DNA from: a virus
Virus record (IMG/VR): IMGVR_UViG_3300045988_152944
Strand: one strand, 5' to 3'
DNA: 64,000 nucleotides
The notes below the pieces were generated by a model that was not told the DNA's origin, ran no database searches, and saw only the letters and a list, made by a program, of their open reading frames with translations. Numbering within the stretch: the stretch's first letter is position 1; every line of letters begins with the position of its first letter. The position numbers were made by a program, and so were the translations under genes. Of the stretch, positions 3,023-44,750 are shown one piece after another.

Positions 3023-3841
3023 TTAGAAGTTGATAATTAACGTGTCTCCTGAAAGTTCGAAGGTGGGTATATCACTTGCCTTTGCGCCGCCTGCTTCAGT
3101 TAAAATCTCACTTGGTGTCCTGTAATATATCCAGCCGTTACTATCGAATACACATACCATTCCAGTTCCCGAACCTTTGTTAGACTTAACACTCGATTGC
3201 AACCAACTGCCTTTTACATATCCGCTTGCGTTGATTGAATAACCACCGTCTTCTCCTGTTATTGTTTGCCCTCCTGTGAACGTATTATTTCCAGCAAGGT
3301 TTGCCTTTCCACTTATATCTTGATGACTTGTTATTACCGTACCTAAATCTACAACACCACTCGTACCTTTACTTCCACCATTCATCTTGATTTCAGTAAT
3401 AGTACCAGTTTTGTTCAAGCCAGGAAATGCTGTTTCATTAACGCCAACGTCGCTTGTACCTAATGTAATATCAGCATTTAGAGCTTTATGATTAACTTTT
3501 CTTGTGTTAGGTACAGCATTGTCTGCTTTTGTACCTTGTGCTGCAGTAGCAAAGAATCCTACGTCTTTTTGAGCAGCAGTGCCCAATCCGTTGACCGTGC
3601 TTTCGAGGCTAGCGATTCTATTGTCATAATCTATCAAGGCAAACGGGAGATTATTGATTGTTCTCGAACCGTCGCCAATTTTGAAACGAACTGCTTGTGT
3701 CTGGACTCCGCTGGTGTTATATTCCGCATCGTATATCACGATTTCTCCCTTTTTGGGGATAAAAGTCGTTGCTTTTGCCCAGTTGGCAGCAGTATCGTGC
3801 TTTTGTTGTATTCTAGAAGTTATATTTTTTTCAGCAGCCAT
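3023..3841 (-). CDS. tail fibre / receptor-binding protein paralog (272 aa)
   Basis: Start moved to ATG 3841 (AAAGGAGG RBS). N-terminal KHDTAANW..KKGE..KIGDG..NLPF anchor is shared with the 5170, 6092 and 9512 genes. An internal module VPNTRK..AFPGLNKTGT..VVDLGTVITSHQDISGK is shared with the 6092 gene. Confidence 0.7.
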   Translation of the reverse strand: MAAEKNITSRIQQKHDTAANWAKATTFIPKKGEIVIYDAEYNTSGVQTQAVRFKIGDGSRTINNLPFALIDYDNRIASLESTVNGLGTAAQKDVGFFATAAQGTKADNAVPNTRKVNHKALNADITLGTSDVGVNETAFPGLNKTGTITEIKMNGGSKGTSGVVDLGTVITSHQDISGKANLAGNNTFTGGQTITGEDGGYSINASGYVKGSWLQSSVKSNKGSGTGMVCVFDSNGWIYYRTPSEILTEAGGAKASDIPTFELSGDTLIINF

Positions 3842-9511: not shown

Positions 9512-10777
9512 TTATGCTACGGTGAAATGCCACTTGTTCGCTTTGTCGCAAGCTGCAGCATTATCTTTGTAATATACGTTATACGACTTAGCCTCATAGC
9601 CATTCGCACCTTCTACATCCACAGTAATGTGGGTAAATGCGCTGAATGCTTCTGCGTTCAGTCCGTTAACGTCTTTGATTGAATTGATAGTTCTCGGTGC
9701 AGGGACAGCTATGATAACACGCATGTCACCAACAGCCTCTTGAGCATCGCCCGTATTGCCCGCTGAGATTGCTCCATTTCTCTTACCAGCCAAACCTCTG
9801 ATAATCGCACTCGTGGGCGTGCCTTCTTTAGATTTGACACCACCCCAGAAACTGTTTCTATAACCAGTAATAGCACTCGAAGCAGCGCTCTTTGTGCCAG
9901 CCGCAATTTTACCAGCTACGCCCTCAGTCGCACCAAGGTTGTTTTTAGGATCGGCACCGGCCGTGTGTGTAGCAACAACACTGACCTTATAACTGGTACT
10001 GTCACCAACTGTAAACTGAGCAAACGAACCCGTTTCTGTAGTAGCCGTATGCGAATCTGTATCGCTGACCTCATAGGTCGCTGTAATACCCGTGTCTGGA
10101 CCATATTGATAGCTACCTTTGTTAAAAGCCACTGAGTACGCAGGAGTGAATTCGCTACCAACCTCCTTTGCGCCGGCACCGGTTAAACTAATAGACACTG
10201 ACGGTTGGTTTACTGTAGGATTATTGTTAGCTTTTGCGAGCGCTCCTTTTAAGAATTCTTCTACAGACTTACCACTTGCGGGCAGCACAACCGAACCGGA
10301 TGCACCAGGAGCATAAATACCAAACGCTGTGGTTGCTGTGATATCATCTTTAAAATATACATTGCCTGCGTCGTAATTGCCATCCATGGCTTCCCAGTTG
10401 GTCTCGCCGCGTACATATGCAGTATACTGATATTTGCCACCAACCAACGCTTCCCTGATGATCGCAATGTCACCTTTAACAGGCTCTGCAATTTCAGCAA
10501 GCGCTGCCGCTTTGTCACCACCCAACGCGATGTCTTTCTGATAAACATCGGTAGTATGCAAATTTTTGGTAGCATCACCGATTGCTTTTTCGACGGCTGC
10601 CAAATCTACAAATGAAACGGTAATTTCGCTCCAAGTTTTGGTGCCATCGCCAACTTTGAAAATGTGTAAATCGGTATCATAACCAACTTCACCTTTCTTC
10701 AAAACAAGCTTGGAAGCAGCCCAATTGGTGCTGGTGTCATTACGTAAAATTAAAGTAATACGTATTTGTTTCTCCAT
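9512..10777 (-). CDS. tail fibre-like protein (421 aa)
   Basis: N-terminal TNW..KKGE..KVGDGTKTW anchor. Its ATG lies inside the 3' tail of the IscB ORF and has no obvious RBS. Confidence 0.55.
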   Translation of the reverse strand: MEKQIRITLILRNDTSTNWAASKLVLKKGEVGYDTDLHIFKVGDGTKTWSEITVSFVDLAAVEKAIGDATKNLHTTDVYQKDIALGGDKAAALAEIAEPVKGDIAIIREALVGGKYQYTAYVRGETNWEAMDGNYDAGNVYFKDDITATTAFGIYAPGASGSVVLPASGKSVEEFLKGALAKANNNPTVNQPSVSISLTGAGAKEVGSEFTPAYSVAFNKGSYQYGPDTGITATYEVSDTDSHTATTETGSFAQFTVGDSTSYKVSVVATHTAGADPKNNLGATEGVAGKIAAGTKSAASSAITGYRNSFWGGVKSKEGTPTSAIIRGLAGKRNGAISAGNTGDAQEAVGDMRVIIAVPAPRTINSIKDVNGLNAEAFSAFTHITVDVEGANGYEAKSYNVYYKDNAAACDKANKWHFTVA

Positions 10778-12054
10778 AAAATTTTCGGCAAAGGCCCCGC
10801 ATCCCCTTCAGGGGTGTGGGGGAATTGCCTCCTCCTTTCTATTAGTTTTGTTGAATTGTGTCTAATCCTTTTAAGGTTCTTATAACTTATTGAACCATTG
10901 TTTACCTTTTCTCCGTCTAAATTTCTGATATCTAAAAATCCTGATTTGCGTCTACCAAAAATCACATATTGTTTATTTTGATATTCTACCGTATCAAATA
11001 AGTCAAACCCAAAAACGTTGCCAATTAGTTGATTATTCTTTTTATATCCACCCTTTGAAAAATTATTTTTATGGATTTGTCTACTCTGCCTTCTAACACA
11101 CTTTTGATAAATATAATAATCTAAAGACTTCGCCTTTGGATTACCACTTATACACCGAGCATCTATGTAGTGTGCTTTCGGCAGATTATTTTCAATACGA
11201 GTGTTTTTAGTTATATAGCCATATGTTTCGTGGACATTTGAATATAACGCACATAATCTGTCAAATAGCGTCTTACACATAATCCCCATAAACGCAGCAT
11301 CTCGATAACTTTTACCACGTTTGAACTTTAATTCAACTTCGCCCTTGTGATAAGCTTTATGACAAGTTTCGCACAAGGTAATTAAATTATTCGGTGCATT
11401 GCCACCTGCTTTACGACTTTCAATATGATGTACATTTAATACATTATCTTTTGATTTACCGTGGCAACATTGGCATTCGTGGTGATCGCGGAATAATACA
11501 TAGGCTCTCACATTCCAGAAACCTAATTGCTCGCCCTGTTGATATTCTTTTCCCGATATTTCGGGATTGTTTATCTTCTGGATATCGAATTGAGCGGTTT
11601 CGACAATAAGTTTAGTTATCGGTAAAATCGCATACAAGCGTTTTATAACTTGAATATGCGAATTTATCTTTTGTTCAACACTTGGAGCAAGCCATCCTTT
11701 GTGTTTTGAATAAACACGATTGTTAAATCTTGCAGGGCGATATCTCAACCGGTTTCTTCTCGTTCTTCTTGCTTCTCTACGAGATGATAGTTTATTTACA
11801 ATATCATTACGCAATTCGACATCAGCTTCATATAGCACTTGTTTGTCCGTTGTGGCAGAAACACCAATATGCTTACTTCCGACATCAATTCCAAGATTCA
11901 CTTCTTGTGTTTGATTTTCACAATCGAATAATAACTGAATTGTAAACGGTTCGTATTTTACTATTTTTGCTTTATTTTGTTTTAGCAATTTTCTTGCTTT
12001 TGCTTCTTTGCAAGGCATTAATGGTTTGCCTTGTTTGTTTAATACATATACCAT
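10750..12054 (-). CDS. iscB: IscB RNA-guided nuclease (434 aa)
   Basis: N-terminal PLMP motif (GKPLMPC), RuvC-I GIDVGSKHIG, Arg-rich bridge helix RREARRTRRNRLRYR, HNH (VHHIESRKAGGNAPNNLITLCETCH), RuvC-III AHYIDA. Confidence 0.85.
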   Translation of the reverse strand: MVYVLNKQGKPLMPCKEAKARKLLKQNKAKIVKYEPFTIQLLFDCENQTQEVNLGIDVGSKHIGVSATTDKQVLYEADVELRNDIVNKLSSRREARRTRRNRLRYRPARFNNRVYSKHKGWLAPSVEQKINSHIQVIKRLYAILPITKLIVETAQFDIQKINNPEISGKEYQQGEQLGFWNVRAYVLFRDHHECQCCHGKSKDNVLNVHHIESRKAGGNAPNNLITLCETCHKAYHKGEVELKFKRGKSYRDAAFMGIMCKTLFDRLCALYSNVHETYGYITKNTRIENNLPKAHYIDARCISGNPKAKSLDYYIYQKCVRRQSRQIHKNNFSKGGYKKNNQLIGNVFGFDLFDTVEYQNKQYVIFGRRKSGFLDIRNLDGEKVNNGSISYKNLKRIRHNSTKLIERRRQFPHTPEGDAGPLPKILWRNKYVLL

Positions 12055-12320
12055 TGCTTTTATAGCCTCCTATATGTTAGAGTGGTTACTCCACGACAAT
12101 GTTATTCAAAGGTTTTACGTATGCAACACTGTTCCTACCCATCAGAACTGTTTAATCACATACCGCAGAGCGTAAGACTGGAGAGTACATCCTACAGTGC
12201 CTATATATTCTTTGATAACGTAGTGCTCGAAGCACTGAGTCTGATCAACTAGTGAGCTTGAAGCCCACGCCTATTTATGGGCTGGGTAGTTGACAAAAAC
12301 TCCTTTTGAAAATAAATTCG
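12055..12320 (-). ncRNA. candidate IscB omega-RNA (guide plus scaffold)
   Basis: 266-nt ORF-free, relatively GC-rich spacer directly 5' of iscB on the same strand, where IscB omega-RNAs are encoded. Local stems are present, e.g. AGTGCT-TCG-AGCACT. The fold was not verified. Confidence 0.55.
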
Positions 12321-30999: not shown

Positions 31000-31230
31000 C
31001 TAGATAGTTCATTGAACTTCTCACGACTAAAGTCGTGAGATTCTTGGGAACTTCCGACCACTGCCGGAATATTTACCAAGCTAACCCCGTCGTCCCAACG
31101 GTTGTTTATATTTAGGCTAATTGTTTAAGCCCTTCATTAAGAATATTTATCGCCGCATTAACATCTCTATCATGATGAGTGTGACAAACGGGGCAATCCC
31201 ATTCTCTGACTTTTAGGTCTTTTGTCTCAG
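31000..31230 (-). ncRNA. candidate TnpB omega/reRNA (overlaps the tnpB 3' end; bounds approximate)
   Basis: Downstream of the stop: perfect hairpin CTCACGAC-TTTA-GTCGTGAG (31020-31039) plus TTCCG..CGGAA and CCGT..ACGG stems, in the position expected for the right-end guide RNA scaffold. Confidence 0.5.
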
Positions 31231-32209
31231 TGTTCTTATATCCACAAACGCTACAAGTCTGCGAACTCGGGAAGAATTTGTCAACTTTAATAACCATTCT
31301 TCCATACCAACGTGCTTTATACTCCAACTCTCTTACAAATTCTGACCAAGAAACATCATTGATTGCTTGCGCGAGTTTGTGATTTTTAACCATATTTTTT
31401 ATTTGCAAATCTTCAAGACAAATCACATCATTTTCTCGAATGATAACTGTTGAGAGTTTTTGTAGAAAATCTTTACGTTGATTTGAAATTTTCTCATGCA
31501 ATCTCGCGACTTTTATTCTTGCTTTGTTACGGTTAGAACCATCTTTTGATTTTCGAGATAATTCTTTTTGTAACTTTGCAAGTTTATTTAACGAGTTTTT
31601 GAGATATTTCGGATTATTGACAACCTCACCATCGCTCGTGATACAAAACTCTTTAAGACCCAGGTCTATGCCGACCACATTGTTTGTAATCGGCAATGGT
31701 TGTATATCCACATCCACACAGCACAACGAAACGTAGTATTTTCCGCTGGGCTCTTGTGAAACCGTCGCGTTTACTATTCTACCTTGTGGTACCAACTTGT
31801 TTTTCGTTTTTACCAATCCAAGTTTTGGAAGTTGAATGTAACCGCCAAGATATTTTATGGTGCCATTCCTATATTTAGAGTTGTAAGAATATTTATGAGT
31901 TTTCTTACTTTTGAAATTTGGAAACCCAGCGTGTTCTTTAAAGAACTTTTTATAAGCATTGTCTAAATCTTTGAGAGAAGATTGAAGAGCAGTGGAATCA
32001 ACTTCTGTAAGCCATTCAAGTTCAGCTTTTAGTTTAGTCATCGCTTTCGAACATTGAACGTAAGTTATATTTTTCTTTTCGGTTTTATATAATTCAATCT
32101 TTTCAGCAAGATACTTGTTATATACAAATCGGCAACAACCAAATGTTTTTGCAATTATTTCTTTCTGCTTTTCGTTTGGATATATACGATATTTATAAGA
32201 TTTTTCCAC
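31112..32209 (-). CDS. tnpB: TnpB RNA-guided endonuclease (365 aa)
   Basis: N-terminus YKYRIYPN..Q, RuvC D (GIDLG) and E (VICLEDL), zinc finger [25 protein letters not shown] start with AAAGGAGG RBS. Confidence 0.9.
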
Positions 32210-33057: not shown

Positions 33058-33639
33058 TTAACTCCTTTTCGCCACCGGTGTACGCAGTACAGCTAAGAAT
33101 TCTTGTAAGGAATAATCAAGGGCGAACAGCTCATCTTCATTTTCTCGCACGAACACCGGAAGTTTAAAACATAAGATCGGATTTTTACTACCAACCACTC
33201 TAAATTCTAATTTAAGCTTCACGGCCTGATGCACCAATTCTAAAAACTTCTTATGATCCTTCATCCCCAACAATTGCATAATTTGTGGCTCGTCGTATTT
33301 GATCCACCCTGAGTCGTGCCAAGTTGTTTTAGCCACATATATTAACACCCCAAACAAGGCTCGAACTTCCTCATTGCTAATATTTAATAAAAAGTTCCAT
33401 TCGTCCTCATAAACCACGAAAGTTGTGAATGTATTTTTGGTATCAAGAGGGGCCTTTAATAAACAGTCCACAATTTGTTCAAAACATTGGTTATTTAATT
33501 CAAACCCGCGTTCACACTCAAGGAGAAATTCTCGTATAGAGCCGTCGGTCATACCTTCGGCTCTTAACGAACTAATAATTTTTACAACGCTGCTGCCTTT
33601 CTCGATCAATTTGTTACAAATTTGTTCTTCAACTGTCAT
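33058..33639 (-). CDS. hypothetical protein (193 aa)
   Basis: Start moved to ATG 33639 (GGAGGA RBS); overlaps the RNAP stop by 11 nt. Confidence 0.5.
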   Translation of the reverse strand: MTVEEQICNKLIEKGSSVVKIISSLRAEGMTDGSIREFLLECERGFELNNQCFEQIVDCLLKAPLDTKNTFTTFVVYEDEWNFLLNISNEEVRALFGVLIYVAKTTWHDSGWIKYDEPQIMQLLGMKDHKKFLELVHQAVKLKLEFRVVGSKNPILCFKLPVFVRENEDELFALDYSLQEFLAVLRTPVAKRS

Positions 33640-34870
33640 AGTCACAATCTCCTCCAAATAAGTTATCAGCATCGAAGTCAAAATCTAAATCTTGCCCCAA
33701 AATTTCTTCCCACGCCGCTTGATTCCAATCGTCATCATCACACAACTCGCTGACGCGATCTTCGTGAATCACTTGTAAAGTGTATCGATTACCAAGGTAT
33801 TCAAATCCAACTTCGTTTTTCACGGGAATTTGAACAATTCCACGAGGGATTAAATCTAACACGCTTTCGTCTAAAATGTCCCAAGCAAAATCCCAATTAA
33901 ACTGTTTGTATTCTTTTGATAAACAATGGCAGTAATAAAGCAATTCTTTGCCACTGAACGACGAAGACTCAATCGCCTCTTGAATTTCCGTTCTGATAAA
34001 TGTCATTGCCCCGAATCTGATTTCATCATATTCGTCACGATTCGGTAAATCAATATTATCAACAATACTCTCCAAGGTTTTTACTTGTTTACGCGCTGTA
34101 TATTTGCGATACAAATCTTTAACAATAGCAAACCGTTCTTGATCAAATTCAAAACAATCCTCAAAGGTGGGCAACATACTTACCGCGTTTTTATTGAAAT
34201 TAATATCAAAATCGACATTTTCAAATTCCTTACACAACACATTCATTATGCACGGTGCGGTGATTAGTGGCGAATACTTTTGATAACGGCGTACCAAATT
34301 CATCTCGTCTTCTGATTTATTAGGTTTGGTTAAAAGTTTTTTAAATTTAACACCAAACATATTTTTGGACGCCATATTATAACTGTTTTCGTATTGTTTA
34401 AATTGTTGATTTAGTTCGGGATATAAATATCTAAAGAAATATGGTTTTTTAGAAATAACCATCGAGTTTCTTTTATATTTATCAGCCTTAACCGCATCAG
34501 TGTCATCATCATTAATTCGGATGAATTTCTTCCACTCTTTCGGCAACTCCGGCGCGGCTGTTCCTTTAATTCGATCAATTTCTTGACCAACAATTTCTCG
34601 AAGTAATTTAATACGCAATGTAAGTTCGTCTCTTTGCTCTTTTTGGGTGTCTTTTTGGAAAATTCCCTTCATCGCGTGCATTATTGTTGCGCAGTTAGAA
34701 AAACCTCCAACCCCAGTTCCCAATCCGCGAATATCAGTCGCGATTGAATTCTTTAAACAAATCTTTTGAACCGGCACCGCACCTTTCTCATATGTGATGA
34801 CATTGTGCCATTTTTGCGCACCCTTGATAAAGATTTTATTATCCGTGGACATTACTACATCTCCGTCAAC
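33629..34870 (-). CDS. YonO-like single-subunit RNA polymerase, exon 2
   Basis: Reading frame is open upstream of the track Met back to 34870 and reads VDGDVVMSTDNK, which completes a DxDGD motif when joined to exon 1. Confidence 0.6.
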   Translation of the reverse strand, partial: VDGDVVMSTDNKIFIKGAQKWHNVITYEKGAVPVQKICLKNSIATDIRGLGTGVGGFSNCATIMHAMKGIFQKDTQKEQRDELTLRIKLLREIVGQEIDRIKGTAAPELPKEWKKFIRINDDDTDAVKADKYKRNSMVISKKPYFFRYLYPELNQQFKQYENSYNMASKNMFGVKFKKLLTKPNKSEDEMNLVRRYQKYSPLITAPCIMNVLCKEFENVDFDINFNKNAVSMLPTFEDCFEFDQERFAIVKDLYRKYTARKQVKTLESIVDNIDLPNRDEYDEIRFGAMTFIRTEIQEAIESSSFSGKELLYYCHCLSKEYKQFNWDFAWDILDESVLDLIPRGIVQIPVKNEVGFEYLGNRYTLQVIHEDRVSELCDDDDWNQAAWEEILGQDLDFDFDADNLFGGDCDYDS

Positions 34871-35190
34871 CTTTACACCCTCGGTTTCCCGATATTTCTT
34901 AGGGGAGTAGATTATCTCATCAACTCATTTCCTGTTACCGTAGTGAGCTGCTCAGCGCTTTGAATGTTGGAGTTTCACCAACACCCTACTCTACTTGCTT
35001 ACTTTCAAACATATTTCTTGTTTGATACGCGTTCGATAATCGTTACACTTTCCTTATTAAAGGCTTAGCACGGTGTTCCCTACGCAGGTTCACCGTTAGC
35101 AGGATTTCATCCCACACCTTGGATTTCCAAGTTCACTGAGTTATCATTCGATTGTCACCAACCGACGGACCCTGTATACGTTAAGTCACT
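34871..35190 (-). other. group I-like self-splicing intron, ORF-less (320 nt)
   Basis: Stop-filled insert. The 5' exon ends in U (35191) and the intron ends in G (34871). Exon CCGAU can pair with intron GUCGG about 25 nt in (P1). Other stems: UCGG-GAAA-CCGA tetraloop hairpin, CUUGG-AAAU-CCAAG, GUUGG..CCAAC. Confidence 0.6.
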
Positions 35191-36825
35191 ATCGGAGTGT
35201 CGTAATGTTGAAGTATCATATATACTGTAAATGATTCCACTCTTAATATATTGATACCAATAGTCCATATCTTCGGACGATACTACTTTACAAGGGTTGT
35301 GTTCGTGCGAATCAATCATCGGGCTTCGGCACAGGTCAACACAACCCACACTTCGCTGCCTCCAGAAATTTGAATACACTTGGTCAGGCCCAATTAACCC
35401 CACCGGTTCCAACCCAAGCGCCGATTGACACTGTGCCACGGGATCAGAAATCATAAAACTATAATTTCCTCTCACCCATATCTTACCAATCTTCGCCTTG
35501 TTTATCGTCTCAGCAATATTGCGATATATTTTCTTCTGTACATGAGCGTCTTCCAACATTATCGGGTTTTTAATAATAGCCCTCAACGCCGTGCTTTGCG
35601 CCCCATTATACAATTCTTTAAAACTGACTTGTTCACCCTTGCAACCCAACATATACAACATTGTATACAATTGGTCACCTGAACAAATCTTTTTAATCCA
35701 ATCAATTGTCGGTTGAATCAATTCCAGAATATCATCCTTATTGATATCCAACACTTGCAGATATTGATAATTGGCCAGCACATATTCGTCATCGTACTTT
35801 TTATTATATCTCGCAACTCCCCACTGAATACCAGCCGCATCTACATACTTTTGATATTCATACCAAGATACATAATATTTATACATCTTGAATTGAGATT
35901 CACTCAATATAACGTCAATATCCTCCAACCTATGTGAAATTCCCCACCGGTCACGAATTGAATCAATACCGTGTTCAGCTCCAAACTCTCGAAAATCAAA
36001 CGGGACCAAACACCCCTTCACAAAAACGCTACGAACAACGAACGACGACGGCGTATACGATAAATTCATATCTTCTGCCCACAGTGCCGCAAACTTAGGA
36101 TCGACCAATCCCTGTCCATCAGCGCAATTCAACTCGATGTCCATAGTTCTTTCTTTAATCTGCTTCTTCCCGGTCTCAGGATTAGGGCAAATCCAATCCA
36201 CCTGTTGGTCCTTCACCACATTAAAGAAATCCTTAACAACACACACTCTCGGCGTCCTCACCCACATAACACTCGAAAACGCCAACGCAAAATACGCATG
36301 ATATTTCGCCAAATTCATTTCTGAAATCTTGGTGTCCAACCCGCACATCAGATTTTTATACAGGGTGTCATAAAGAGCTTCATTAATAAAGGTAATAGTG
36401 TTGCGCCTCATTTGTCCCGAACCACAACAAAACCTCACATAATGAATACCGTTAACGTCAAATCCGTTCTTGGCCAATTCTTTATATTCTTTTTTGGTCA
36501 CGACTTCAACGTTAACAATATCTTTAACAAACAACGCATCTGTCAAAAACCGATTAAGAATACCAGCTTCTTTGGTTCGTCCTTCTCTCTTCGCAGCTCT
36601 GATAGCGCGACGAAATTGTTGGACATCGTTAAAAATCTCTCGATGACTTCTGGTATCATTATAATATTTTCTGATTTGTTGAAAAACCAGATTATCACCA
36701 ATTGATACCAGTGCCCCATCGCGAGCTGCCTTAGATTTTGAATAATTAACTATATTTAAGTTGTTCTCTACAATAAAACTAGATTTAAGTTTAAAAACTT
36801 GATATAGGTTTTGTAAATTAGGCAC
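35191..36825 (-). CDS. YonO-like single-subunit RNA polymerase, exon 1
   Basis: Ends ...CRSPMIDSHEHNPCKVV...STLRHSD, resembling the R.P...H...P / S.DxDGD region of YonO and eukaryotic RdRP-type two-barrel polymerases. GTG start 2 nt after the upstream stop. Confidence 0.6.
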
Positions 36826-37984: not shown

Positions 37985-38006
37985 AGAAAGAGGATATTCT
38001 CTTTCT
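37985..38006 (-). promoter_or_regulatory. 5'-leader hairpin between P1 and the first left-arm gene
   Basis: Perfect AGAAAGAG-N6-CTCTTTCT. Confidence 0.4.
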
Positions 38007-38021
38007 TCTTATTATATTTAT

Positions 38022-38050
38022 ATTATAACACATATCATATTTAATATCAA
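38022..38050 (-). promoter_or_regulatory. sigma-70/sigma-A type promoter P1 (leftward)
   Basis: TTGATA-17 nt-TATAAT on the minus strand. Confidence 0.7.
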
Positions 38051-38108
38051 CCTATGATGACATTTTTATAAAATTTTTAACATTTTTTAATTTTTCTGTC
38101 ATTGTAGG

Positions 38109-38137
38109 TTGACTTTTCTTTTCAAAGTTGTTATAAT
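38109..38137 (+). promoter_or_regulatory. consensus promoter P2 (rightward)
   Basis: TTGACT-17 nt-TATAAT. Confidence 0.75.
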
Positions 38138-38139
38138 TT

Positions 38140-38291
38140 GGGTGGTGGGCGGGTATAGATAAGAAGATCTTTTTTATTTATATATAAATATATAATATAT
38201 ATTCTATAATTATAACATATAATATGTTAAATATATATTAAAATATAATATAATAAAAAATAGTGATCTCATTCTCCCGACCACCCACCCC
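38140..38291. repeat. G-box / AT-core / C-box element between convergent promoters
   Basis: GGGTGGTGGGCGGG (38140-38153) and CCCGACCACCCACCCC (38276-38291) are imperfect inverted repeats. They bracket ~120 bp of almost pure A/T. Confidence 0.7.
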
Positions 38292-38292
38292 T

Positions 38293-38321
38293 ATTATACA
38301 CAGAAAAATACCATTTGTCAA
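38293..38321 (-). promoter_or_regulatory. consensus promoter P3 (leftward)
   Basis: TTGACA-17 nt-TATAAT on the minus strand. Confidence 0.75.
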
Positions 38322-38421
38322 CTACCAATGACAGAAAATACAAAAAAATAAAAAAATATTTTCCACAAAGCAAAACTACCACGCATGCTCACAGAATCTT
38401 AAAGAATTATGTCATCTACGG

Positions 38422-38450
38422 TTGACTTTTGTTGGCACATAGTGTATAAT
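38422..38450 (+). promoter_or_regulatory. consensus promoter P4 (rightward, early arm)
   Basis: TTGACT-17 nt-TATAAT. Confidence 0.8.
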
Positions 38451-43517: not shown

Positions 43518-44009
43518 ATGTCTATTAAAATCAATCAAATTGCAGCAACCGCCAACATCATCAACGCTCTCGATGCAATGAAAGCAGACGAGAACATCAG
43601 CCTCGGCATCGAAGAAATCGAGTTTCCTGATGGAAGCAAAGAGAAATTCTATTACAACGGCGAGTCCGACAAACAAGCAGCCGTGCACTTCGCACAGATT
43701 TGCATCGATGTTTGCGCCGGCGACAGCGACAAAGCCAAACGTATGATGGCTTCGTGTTTCAAACTTCTCACTAAAGGCTACAATGTCGACGAAATTGTCC
43801 CGTCTGCGGAAAGCGAAATCAACACCGAAACTTATATTGATTATAAGAAAGGTGTCTTGCTCACGCCGTACGCGTCGGTTGTCGCGTCTCTCACCGAGGA
43901 TGAACTCAAAGCAACAAAGGGCAAAAAGAATCCCCTTACCAAATCACTCTTGCTCGAAAGATCGAGAACTGATTGTTTAGAAGACGCTCTTAAATATTAC
44001 GAGAGCTGA
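43518..44009 (+). CDS. hypothetical early protein (163 aa)
   Basis: AAAGGAGG RBS. Confidence 0.65.
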   Translation: MSIKINQIAATANIINALDAMKADENISLGIEEIEFPDGSKEKFYYNGESDKQAAVHFAQICIDVCAGDSDKAKRMMASCFKLLTKGYNVDEIVPSAESEINTETYIDYKKGVLLTPYASVVASLTEDELKATKGKKNPLTKSLLLERSRTDCLEDALKYYES

Positions 44010-44156
44010 ACCCCGCAAGGCCCGCACGAAAGTGTGAACGGCGCAAGCCCGTTGCCCTCTTAGGAGGGTGGCGCTCATGGTGTTCATAATGGCATCATCT
44101 TCGTAAAATAAAAATCTTGCTAATCGAAGACTAATGGCATAGAAAGGAGAATCATT

Positions 44157-44750
44157 ATGAAAAATTATATTATTGCAACCGTCAAGGCAACCTTCTACAA
44201 TGTAGAAAAACAAGTTCCAGTTGCCCCGACCCATCCGATGGACCAAAATGAATGGGACGAGAATGTCGTCACTGAAACGGTATTCCAAAATGTAGTGGAG
44301 GAATTCCACTCCTTGCCGCGCAGGAACACTGCCGCAGCAATGGAAGAGGCTAAATGGCTGGCACTTCGTAAAGGTTGGTCAATGCAACGCAACGATTACG
44401 AGATCGAAATCGAAGAACTGCCTACCAAGGCGGTGTCAGTTTATGAGGAAGAAGACCTCGTAAAATTGTATCAAGGTAACAAAGTTGAAAAATTCGCTTT
44501 GTTGCAAAATCTTGTCCCTGGACAAGAAATCAAATCATATACCAAACGTTATTGGATGTTAAATCCTCAAACGTTTGAACCCGTCCGTACGACGGTGACG
44601 ATGTACAAAGAAGGGAATATCAACCCCGACTTCGAAAACGAAGAGGGTACTGGGAAATGGTATTATCTAAATGAAGAAGAGTGCCTCTTCACCGGCGACG
44701 AGAGCTGCCGCAAACATATCAATAAACACCGCAATATTTGGTTGTTTTAA
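44157..44750 (+). CDS. hypothetical early protein (197 aa)
   Basis: AAAGGAG RBS. Confidence 0.65.
   Translation: MKNYIIATVKATFYNVEKQVPVAPTHPMDQNEWDENVVTETVFQNVVEEFHSLPRRNTAAAMEEAKWLALRKGWSMQRNDYEIEIEELPTKAVSVYEEEDLVKLYQGNKVEKFALLQNLVPGQEIKSYTKRYWMLNPQTFEPVRTTVTMYKEGNINPDFENEEGTGKWYYLNEEECLFTGDESCRKHINKHRNIWLF

Follow-up and report, generated by a model that had tools for sequence, protein, structure and literature searches.

A YonO-type RNA polymerase gene, carried by a viral DNA of 64,000 nucleotides (nt) (IMG/VR record IMGVR_UViG_3300045988_152944; the whole stretch is referred to as the window), is interrupted within the codons of its aspartate triad by a 314-nt insert at 35183..34870 on the minus strand that has the features of a group I intron. 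We assign a probability of about 0.9 to this reading as a whole, that is, a YonO-type gene, a group I intron at this position, guanosine-dependent splicing and spread of the intron by homing. In the window the gene appears as two co-oriented minus-strand open reading frames (ORFs), 36825..35155 (556 amino acids (aa), GTG start) and 34852..33629 (407 aa). As an earlier note on this DNA had observed, they are split by an insert that has stops in all three frames and no ORF, and upstream of its ATG the second ORF remains in open frame, reading VDGDVVM. The G+C content is 43% for the insert versus 37–39% for the exons, and removal of the insert yields a joined coding sequence (CDS) of 2883 nt, 960 aa, with a single terminal stop.

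The exact insertion point was determined by scanning IMG/VR for relatives, revealing nine close ones (L005–L013). Four of these are intron-less and have one open frame of 960 or 958 codons (L005 and L006, 96% nucleotide identity; L007 and L008, 80%), whereas L009, L010, L011 and L013 carry the same insert and that of L012, in the same position, is longer. In the intron-less alleles the sequence is ...CGA CAT TCT GAC AGT GAT TTT GAC GGC GAC GTA..., encoding RHSDSDFDGDV, and the window reads ...CGA CAC TCC GAT AGT GAC T(TAACG...AAAGG)TT GAC GGA GAT GTA..., with the ends of the insert in brackets. The 314 nt are precisely absent from the four intron-less loci, with no target-site duplication, and the joined exons equal the intron-less sequence except for silent changes. 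Two cuts restore the intron-less frame and protein, one after GACU (intron end ...AAAGG) and one after GACUU (intron end ...AAAGGU); only the former, joining 35184 to 34869, has both a U at position −1 and a terminal G, and the intron is therefore assigned to 35183..34870. This comparison of alleles places the insertion after the first base of codon F548, within the aspartate-triad motif D547-F-D549-G-D551, such that DFDGD (residues 547–551 of the spliced product) is encoded only after splicing. The predicted spliced junction is ...GAUAGUGACU joined to UUGACGGAGAU..., or, as a 40-mer, CGACACTCCGATAGTGACT joined to TTGACGGAGATGTAGTAATG.

The earlier note had instead joined 35191 to 34870, which is off by 7 nt on the 5′ side and by 1 nt on the 3′ side (junction sequence ...TCCGAT followed by GTTGACGG). 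That join does give an in-frame HSD-VDGD protein of 958 aa, as proposed; it is not the splice junction, since the intron-less alleles give 35184 to 34869, DFDGD and 960 aa. Similarly, the U and G splice-site rule that the note invoked holds, at 35184 and 34870 rather than at its own sites. A further candidate junction, DSD-VDGD with C at position −1, was dropped, as the intron-less alleles show F548 and the cut with U at −1 and a terminal G reproduces it exactly. A search of IMG/VR for a natural 'spliced' copy, in the form of an intron-less allele whose flanks are of the intron type, found none.

When spliced, the gene encodes a single-chain two-barrel RNA polymerase of the YonO type, 960 aa long, which bears out the assignment in the earlier note. 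The joined product matched the Pfam RNA-dependent RNA polymerase (RdRP) family PF05183 with 39.8 bits (cut-off 23.8) and the PHROGs family phrog_8308 in one stretch over residues 14–862. BLASTP against SPbeta YonO gave E = 2e-38 with 28% identity over 571 aa, SDFDGD being aligned with FDNDGD (triad DFDGD/DNDGD), and in tblastn against GenBank phages SPbeta yonO and its relatives aligned straight across the junction. A large protein collection held more than 120 uninterrupted homologues (920–1000 aa, 53–99% identity), many of them on 120–150 kb contigs, and the source is probably a tailed phage of ~120–140 kb with a gut Bacillota host. Alignment of 23 full-length homologues gave the consensus RHSDSDFDGD, in which D545, D547, D549, G550 and D551 do not vary. 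This 23-homologue alignment was used for an AlphaFold model of the intron-less allele P0001, whose identity to the spliced product is 99% (predicted local distance difference test (pLDDT), 81; predicted template modelling score (pTM), 0.74). Foldseek of the predicted fold returned plant RDR2 and fungal QDE-1 as the top matches (E = 6e-18 to 1e-11, probability 1.0) and, after these, the crAss-like phage phi14:2 virion RNA polymerase (6vr4; E = 4e-4); the two double-psi beta-barrel fold is thus predicted for the polymerase. Megablast of the gene against GenBank phages gave no match, and phmmer of the protein against PDB sequences returned only chance transthyretin hits. [quoted passage not shown] Two further PHROGs families, both of 'unknown function', match one half of the polymerase each, phrog_25339 the N-terminal half only (residues 6–539) and phrog_35857 the C-terminal half only (592–923); they were probably built from intron-split gene calls rather than from real proteins.

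We next consider the structure of the insert as RNA (Table 1). Its minimum free energy (MFE), calculated as a single-stranded RNA fold, was −87.5 kcal/mol compared with −73.3 ± 4.6 for shuffled sequences (z = −3.07). Covariation was assessed in seven sequences, namely the window, L009–L011, L013, L012 with its ORF loop removed and the Bacillus Agatevirus DNA polymerase intron L083; nhmmer and pair counting were used. A core of 78 pairs from P1 to P9, including the P3/P7 pseudoknot, had 97.3% standard pairs among 527 cells, and 31 of the 78 pairs showed changes on both sides relative to 8.0 ± 2.1 in 500 shuffles (none of which reached the observed value). Sliding the 3′ partners by 1–3 columns left only 4–8 pairs with changes on both sides. 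The same nested helices were obtained from the single-sequence MFE and from RNAalifold, independently of the hand-drawn structure. On the grounds of the P3–P9 core with its two domains (P4-P6 and P3-P7-P8-P9), the pseudoknot, the U-G pair at the 5′ site, the omega G and the clean absence from relatives, the insert is, as far as its sequence can tell, a group I intron; the covariation, the homology to phage introns and the intron-less alleles uphold the earlier claim of such an intron within the aspartate-triad codons.

Individual elements of the core agree with this assignment. The sequence does contain the exon CCGAU and the intron GUCGG reported previously, as well as the UCGG-GAAA-CCGA hairpin; the proposal that CCGAU and GUCGG form P1 did not hold, as GUCGG forms the base of the P2 hairpin, where L012 has a compensatory change (UCGGAUG-GUAA-CAUUCGA, U-A to A-U on both sides), and the guide is GGGUC. 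The P1 assignment draws mainly on position, being derived from the junction, and should be read as putative; its pair beside the wobble is U-G or U-A, with three sequences for each. By eye, P3 corresponds to UGUAG/CUACA in the insert of faecal phage MT835481 (L002) and to AGUG/CACU in that of Enterocloster phage CB473P3 (L004), and the position of P9 to CAUG/CAUG in Clostridium phage c-st (L003) and UUGG/CCAG in Enterocloster. An alternative P3, UCCUG/CAGGA, was rejected, as it is not kept in L012 and L013 whereas the local hairpin GGGAU/AUCCY is kept. The two extra hairpins between P3 and P4 recur in L083 and in the inserts of L002 and L004. In P7, a bulged C adjoins a G-C pair (35041/34910) that is invariant in the seven sequences, the arrangement expected of a guanosine-binding site, and the J8/7-P7 segment GAGAUAAUCU differs at two positions from the RF00028 consensus AAGAUAUAGUCU. 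Peripheral hairpins P7.1 and P7.2 are typical of subgroup IA in the Michel–Westhof scheme, and the intron is of the phage IA type, its subgroup being placed by P7.1 and P7.2. RNAalifold also paired UUAAC at the 5′ splice site (35179–35184) with GUUGA at the start of the 3′ exon (34865–34869), in invariant sequence; such a pairing would bring the splice sites together.

Table 1. Exons, intron and predicted structural elements of the intron in the window (set, the seven sequences used for covariation).
Feature	Position	Strand	Description and support
5′ exon, YonO-type RNA polymerase gene	35184..36825	−	Residues 1–547 and first base of codon F548; ends ...GAU AGU GAC U; collinear with intron-less L005–L008 to that base
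Group I intron, 314 nt, no ORF	34870..35183	−	Starts UAACG, ends AAAGG, omega G = 34870; absence from L005–L008, structure/covariation, phage-intron homology
3′ exon	33629..34869	−	Starts UU GAC GGA GAU (rest of F548, then D549 G550 D551); runs to stop codon
P1	35168..35187	−	Exon GACU and intron U1 (35187..35183) with guide GGGUC (35172..35168, intron nt 12–16); U35184-G13 wobble; 100% paired
P2 hairpin UCGGUUG-GUGA-CAAUCGA	35148..35165	−	Includes GUCGG; loop holds in-frame stop UGA 35157..35155; covariation and MFE/RNAalifold
P3 5′ strand CUCAG	35136..35140	−	Pairs with 34955..34951; 3 of 5 pairs changed on both sides in L083
Two extra P3–P4 hairpins, CUUGG-AAAU-CCAAG and GGGA-UGAAA-UCCU	35101..35131	−	Flanks invariant UGAA, GUGU, GCUAA; three compensatory pairs each
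P4-P5-P6 domain ACGGUG/CACCGU, CCU/GGG, CCUU/AAGG	35052..35096	−	Covariation set; resembles RF00028 consensus aligned to L083
P7 5′ strand A-C-GAUUAUC	35035..35043	−	Pairs with 34916..34909, crosses P3 (pseudoknot); U-A to C-G on both sides in two sequences
P7.1 CAAACA/UGUUUG and P7.2 GGGUGUUGG/CCAACAUUC	34962..35024	−	Four and six pairs changed on both sides
P3 3′ strand CUGAG, P8 CAGCUCA/UGAGUUG, J8/7, P7 3′ strand GAUAAUCU	34909..34955	−	Covariation set
P9, CCC...GGG around UCGG-GAAA-CCGA tetraloop hairpin	34878..34904	−	Invariant in close set

The homology of the insert to phage introns was examined at the nucleotide level. Its last 55 nt have 86–92% identity to sequences in 251 GenBank phage records, from phages of Staphylococcus, Enterococcus, Listeria, Bacillus and Brochothrix, and in the two records inspected the match sits in the gap between pieces of a DNA polymerase I gene or a terminase large-subunit gene. 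The best match is the Agatevirus DNA polymerase insert L083, with 70% identity over 176 nt. In phiAGATE, which belongs to the same species as the phage of L083, the polymerase gene, with what may be the same intron, was shown to undergo splicing during infection (PMC11878797). A search of the window for further introns of this family (nhmmer and the J8/7 motif) found none. Separately, nhmmer with the intron alignment detected related inserts in the IMG/VR YonO-family loci L050/L051, L070 and L079–L082 (E = 1e-12 to 6e-11), located 0.9–1.2 kb downstream of the end of the tblastn polymerase match.

Several observations weigh against the reading as a whole. The Rfam model RF00028, the check suggested by the earlier note and part of its refuting condition, had no match to the insert, whether 901 nt or 331 nt was searched (E <= 10), a result that, on its own, would count against the claim; likewise, no group I or group II intron match reaching the gathering score was obtained when the insert and the whole window were searched with Rfam. 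In addition, five of the seven covariation sequences are close relatives, with most double changes coming from L012, L013 and L083; P1 is short (5 base pairs (bp)), with one variable pair and on one side only; P10 is weak (3 bp); the extra P3–P4 hairpins fit no classical (IA) subgroup diagram; and, for some related phage introns, infected cells were the only setting in which splicing occurred, with none in vitro (PMC11878797). In the same run, RF00028 also missed the inserts of L002, L003, L004 and L012 and the Staphylococcus terminase inserts in L084, matching only the Agatevirus intron L083 (41.2 bits, E = 2.5e-7, below the gathering score of 50), and the Rfam and GISSD models are reported to under-represent phage introns (PMC11878797). 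The failure of RF00028 reflects the poor reach of the model for phage introns and not the absence of an intron; the extra P3–P4 hairpins probably contribute to this failure and may also explain why the model mis-pairs P3 in L083. Homology, structure, P1 and clean excision together outweigh the null result.

Three other explanations of the interrupted gene were weighed. The intron might be a decayed, non-splicing copy that leaves the polymerase gene of the window a pseudogene, and the loss of an endonuclease ORF and the silence of RF00028 are compatible with this. Both exons are intact, however, and encode a protein 96–99% identical to the intron-less alleles, the variants differ by compensatory changes that preserve the helices, and the same allele is found in four large IMG/VR contigs, with fragments on more; moreover, a phage reliant on its own late-gene polymerase would not be expected to persist with a dead copy. 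We consider decay very unlikely. Splicing from 35191 to 34870, with CCGAU/GUCGG as P1 and the 958-aa HSD-VDGD protein as the exclusive or an alternative product, could draw on a 5-bp P1 with a U-G wobble, on the base before 34870 also being G, on the retention of a DxDGD motif and on a recorded case of alternative splicing of a phage group I intron (PMC11878797). Such a product would nevertheless drop Ser-Asp from SDSDFDGD, whose aspartates and glycine are the residues invariant in the homologues, and change F548 to V. The first six 'intron' bases, AGTGAC, would encode the in-frame S-D of the intron-less alleles (AGTGAT) by coincidence, and GUCGG is placed in the P2 hairpin by the MFE, by RNAalifold and by the compensatory change, so that this product is highly improbable.

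A truly split gene, in which the 556-aa and 407-aa polypeptides assemble with no RNA splicing, has a precedent of sorts in PHROGs, where the separate half families phrog_25339 and phrog_35857 exist. Split polymerase subunits do occur in some phages. Here, though, the second frame lacks a start codon before the DGD codons and its ORF starts at an ATG after D551, leaving D549, G550 and D551 untranslated, and the insert has a conserved ribozyme structure; a better explanation of the half-gene families is that gene callers divide genes that contain introns, as with phage c-st. We regard a two-polypeptide enzyme as next to impossible, and retain a single polymerase restored by removal of the group I intron at 35183..34870.

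To evaluate the mobility of the intron, the alleles of near-identical phages were compared. Between L012 and the window the exons are 97–100% identical while the introns at the same site are only 78% identical, and the L012 intron has a 230-aa ORF in its P5 loop that matches phrog_314 'homing endonuclease' (2e-16) and NUMOD3; a GIY-YIG-like motif in this ORF was recognized by eye only (Pfam E = 0.13, not significant). Exon identity between the window and L013 rises from 74% at the gene start, reaches 100% over the final 50 nt ahead of the intron and declines after it from 90% to 63%, whereas the intron-less L007, which is as diverged overall, has no identity peak at the intron site. This gradient fits the pattern expected from co-conversion during homing. 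In a collection of 15 billion proteins, one 90%-identity cluster of 570 members mixes 960-aa proteins with 556-, 549- and 407-aa fragments, and the intron-plus and intron-less states are therefore both common in nature. The 549-aa fragments occur on more than 70 contigs and are as long as would be expected from the stop codon in the L012-type intron; the window allele is present in four large IMG/VR contigs, its fragments occurring on further contigs. We propose from these comparisons that the intron is a mobile element spread by homing and that the copy in the window would be an ORF-less derivative or relative of the ORF-bearing form at the same site.

Four more YonO homologues were found to be interrupted in the DxDGD codons, those of faecal phage MT835481 (L002), Clostridium phage c-st (L003), Enterocloster phage CB473P3 (L004) and CB457P1; for CB457P1, the interruption was seen as a tblastn break at the same residue. 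By eye, the inserts of L002–L004 have the same core motifs, U at position −1 and a terminal G. Their exons join after a GAU codon as DFD-GD or DMD-GD, 5 nt downstream of the window site, and the introns are only distantly related to that of the window (nhmmer 1e-10 to 5e-6 over the 3′ part); the L002 insert encodes a NUMOD4 and HNH_3 protein. In GenBank the pieces of the c-st gene are labelled 'YonO-homolog (N-ter only)' and '(C-ter only)', and the Enterocloster halves are separate or hypothetical proteins. The motif is uninterrupted in most of the other YonO-family loci retrieved, SPbeta among them. Two additional irregularities were seen in these genes: a second group-I-like insert lies later in the YonO gene of CB473P3, at about 3200–3520, and the C-terminal part of the c-st gene (L003 3534–5422) is annotated as two overlapping CDSs, CST178 and CST177, an overlap that suggests a further interruption or frameshift.

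The polymerase gene belongs to a minus-strand block that begins below a divergent intergenic region (38000–38450) and runs on into exonuclease, terminase, portal and tail genes; it has the same orientation as the last three and lies upstream of them. Several near-consensus sigma-70-type promoters are found on both strands of the intergenic region, among them a perfect TTGACA-17-TATAAT at 38321..38293 (−), which is a consensus match only; judged by these motifs, the region is probably the early/middle control region for transcription of the polymerase gene. In the mechanism that we propose, the host polymerase probably makes the pre-mRNA from the sigma-70-like promoters near 38300, and the transcript would fold into the P1–P9 core. 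A free guanosine bound in P7 would attack after U35184, held in a U-G wobble with the guide GGGUC, and the freed 5′ exon would in turn attack after omega G34870, joining ...GAC U to UU GAC GGA GAU. The 960-aa polymerase would be translated from the ligated exons, the full triad being available only from spliced mRNA. On unspliced mRNA, ribosomes would stop at the P2-loop UGA (35157..35155) and release a 556-aa fragment without D549 and D551. As this product lacks both residues, production of the polymerase, and with it the transcription that it carries out, would depend on splicing, in line with the earlier note. Splicing itself, its independence of protein and the genes transcribed by the polymerase are, at this stage, presumed.

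Among known systems, the closest to the intron are the group I introns of Herelleviridae phages, namely the DNA polymerase introns of SPO1, Bastille and Agatevirus and the terminase introns of Twortvirinae, with which it shares a P3–P9 core with P7.1 and P7.2 and a near-identical J8/7-P7 segment and P9. The DNA polymerase and terminase introns of Herelleviridae are conventionally placed in subgroup IA2. Like that of the window, they lie in conserved catalytic motifs of essential genes and occur in versions with and without an ORF. They differ in the host gene (DNA polymerase, terminase or ribonucleotide reductase, as opposed to a YonO-type RNA polymerase), in phage lineage (the window being from an unclassified gut phage) and in the response of RF00028 (41 bits for the Agatevirus intron, no score for the window). 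A second parallel is the PhiPA3 gp210 intron, a putative group I intron that lies in the virion RNA polymerase beta-subunit gene right after two conserved aspartates and whose endonuclease, an HNH nickase, is directed at a rival phage (Birkholz et al. 2024, PMC11620839). Both introns lie in phage RNA polymerase genes at conserved aspartates; in PhiPA3, a jumbo Pseudomonas phage, the target is a beta-like subunit of the multisubunit type and the intron carries the HNH nickase, while in the window it is the metal-binding triad of a single-chain two-barrel enzyme and the intron has no ORF. SPbeta YonO itself (Forrest et al. 2017, PMC5467207) is homologous but uninterrupted, and the window protein is 120 aa longer and differs in its C-terminal region.

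Within the library of papers searched, none combined 'group I intron' with YonO and 'RNA polymerase'; YonO-like or two-barrel terms brought up no report of an intron of this sort, and P3.1/P3.2 nomenclature brought up nothing relevant. That group I introns occupy conserved catalytic motifs in essential genes of phages is textbook knowledge. The intron is of a familiar phage kind in a host gene without an earlier report, and involves no new mechanism; what is new is the host gene family, insertion that recurs at two sites among the triad codons, and the well-resolved natural allele series. The main practical value lies in the re-annotation of split YonO genes and in the documentation of an intron missed by RF00028. 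The former concerns the c-st and Enterocloster YonO halves, the artificial-looking PHROGs halves and the mixed 90%-identity cluster; the latter offers a clean case of a real group I intron that could be useful for better phage-intron covariance models. The only polymerase family that bridges cellular multisubunit RNA polymerases and eukaryotic RdRPs is also a group I intron target, at its metal-binding site, and the series of intron-plus, intron-less and endonuclease-bearing alleles in near-identical phages would be usable for tests of homing and of phage–phage interference.

A broader interpretation, which we put forward as a tentative and rather unlikely one, is that the 15 triad-encoding bases of YonO-type polymerases are a recurrent hot spot for homing over which several unrelated lineages of introns and endonucleases compete, that these elements serve as weapons and shields between co-infecting gut phages, and that the mix of intron-plus and intron-less alleles is a maintained rather than a transient polymorphism. 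Its basis is the presence of at least two insertion points 5 nt apart and of ORFs that are GIY-YIG-like/NUMOD3, NUMOD4-HNH or absent; among near-identical phages, intron-plus and intron-less alleles form a roughly even mix. If this were true, introns with an ORF would cut a rival's polymerase gene where it lacks the intron, as for PhiPA3 gp210, and ORF-less introns such as that of the window would protect the site.

Other mobile and RNA elements were noted in the window and in a relative. A TnpB-like gene at 31112–32209 (−), with HTH_OrfB_IS605, OrfB_IS605 and a Cas12f1-like TNB domain (phrog_506 'transposase'), lies ~1.4 kb downstream of the polymerase gene within the same minus-strand block. 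An IscB-type gene at 10750–12054 (−) (Pfam RRXRR and HNH, 434 aa) is directly downstream of a match to the HEARO/omega-RNA model RF02033 (133 bits, 12082–12294), and together they look like a complete OMEGA element (10750–12294 (−)) inside the phage. L012 (IMGVR_UViG_3300030343_000052) has a second HEARO RNA at 1004–1217 (−) (94.6 bits), ~1.8 kb upstream of its polymerase gene; the window has none at that position, and OMEGA elements therefore occupy different places in near-identical phages. Finally, RF02681 (gathering score, 34) matched at 44008–44087 (+) with 64 bits, which places a twister-sister ribozyme between the ORFs 43518–44009 and 44157–44750.

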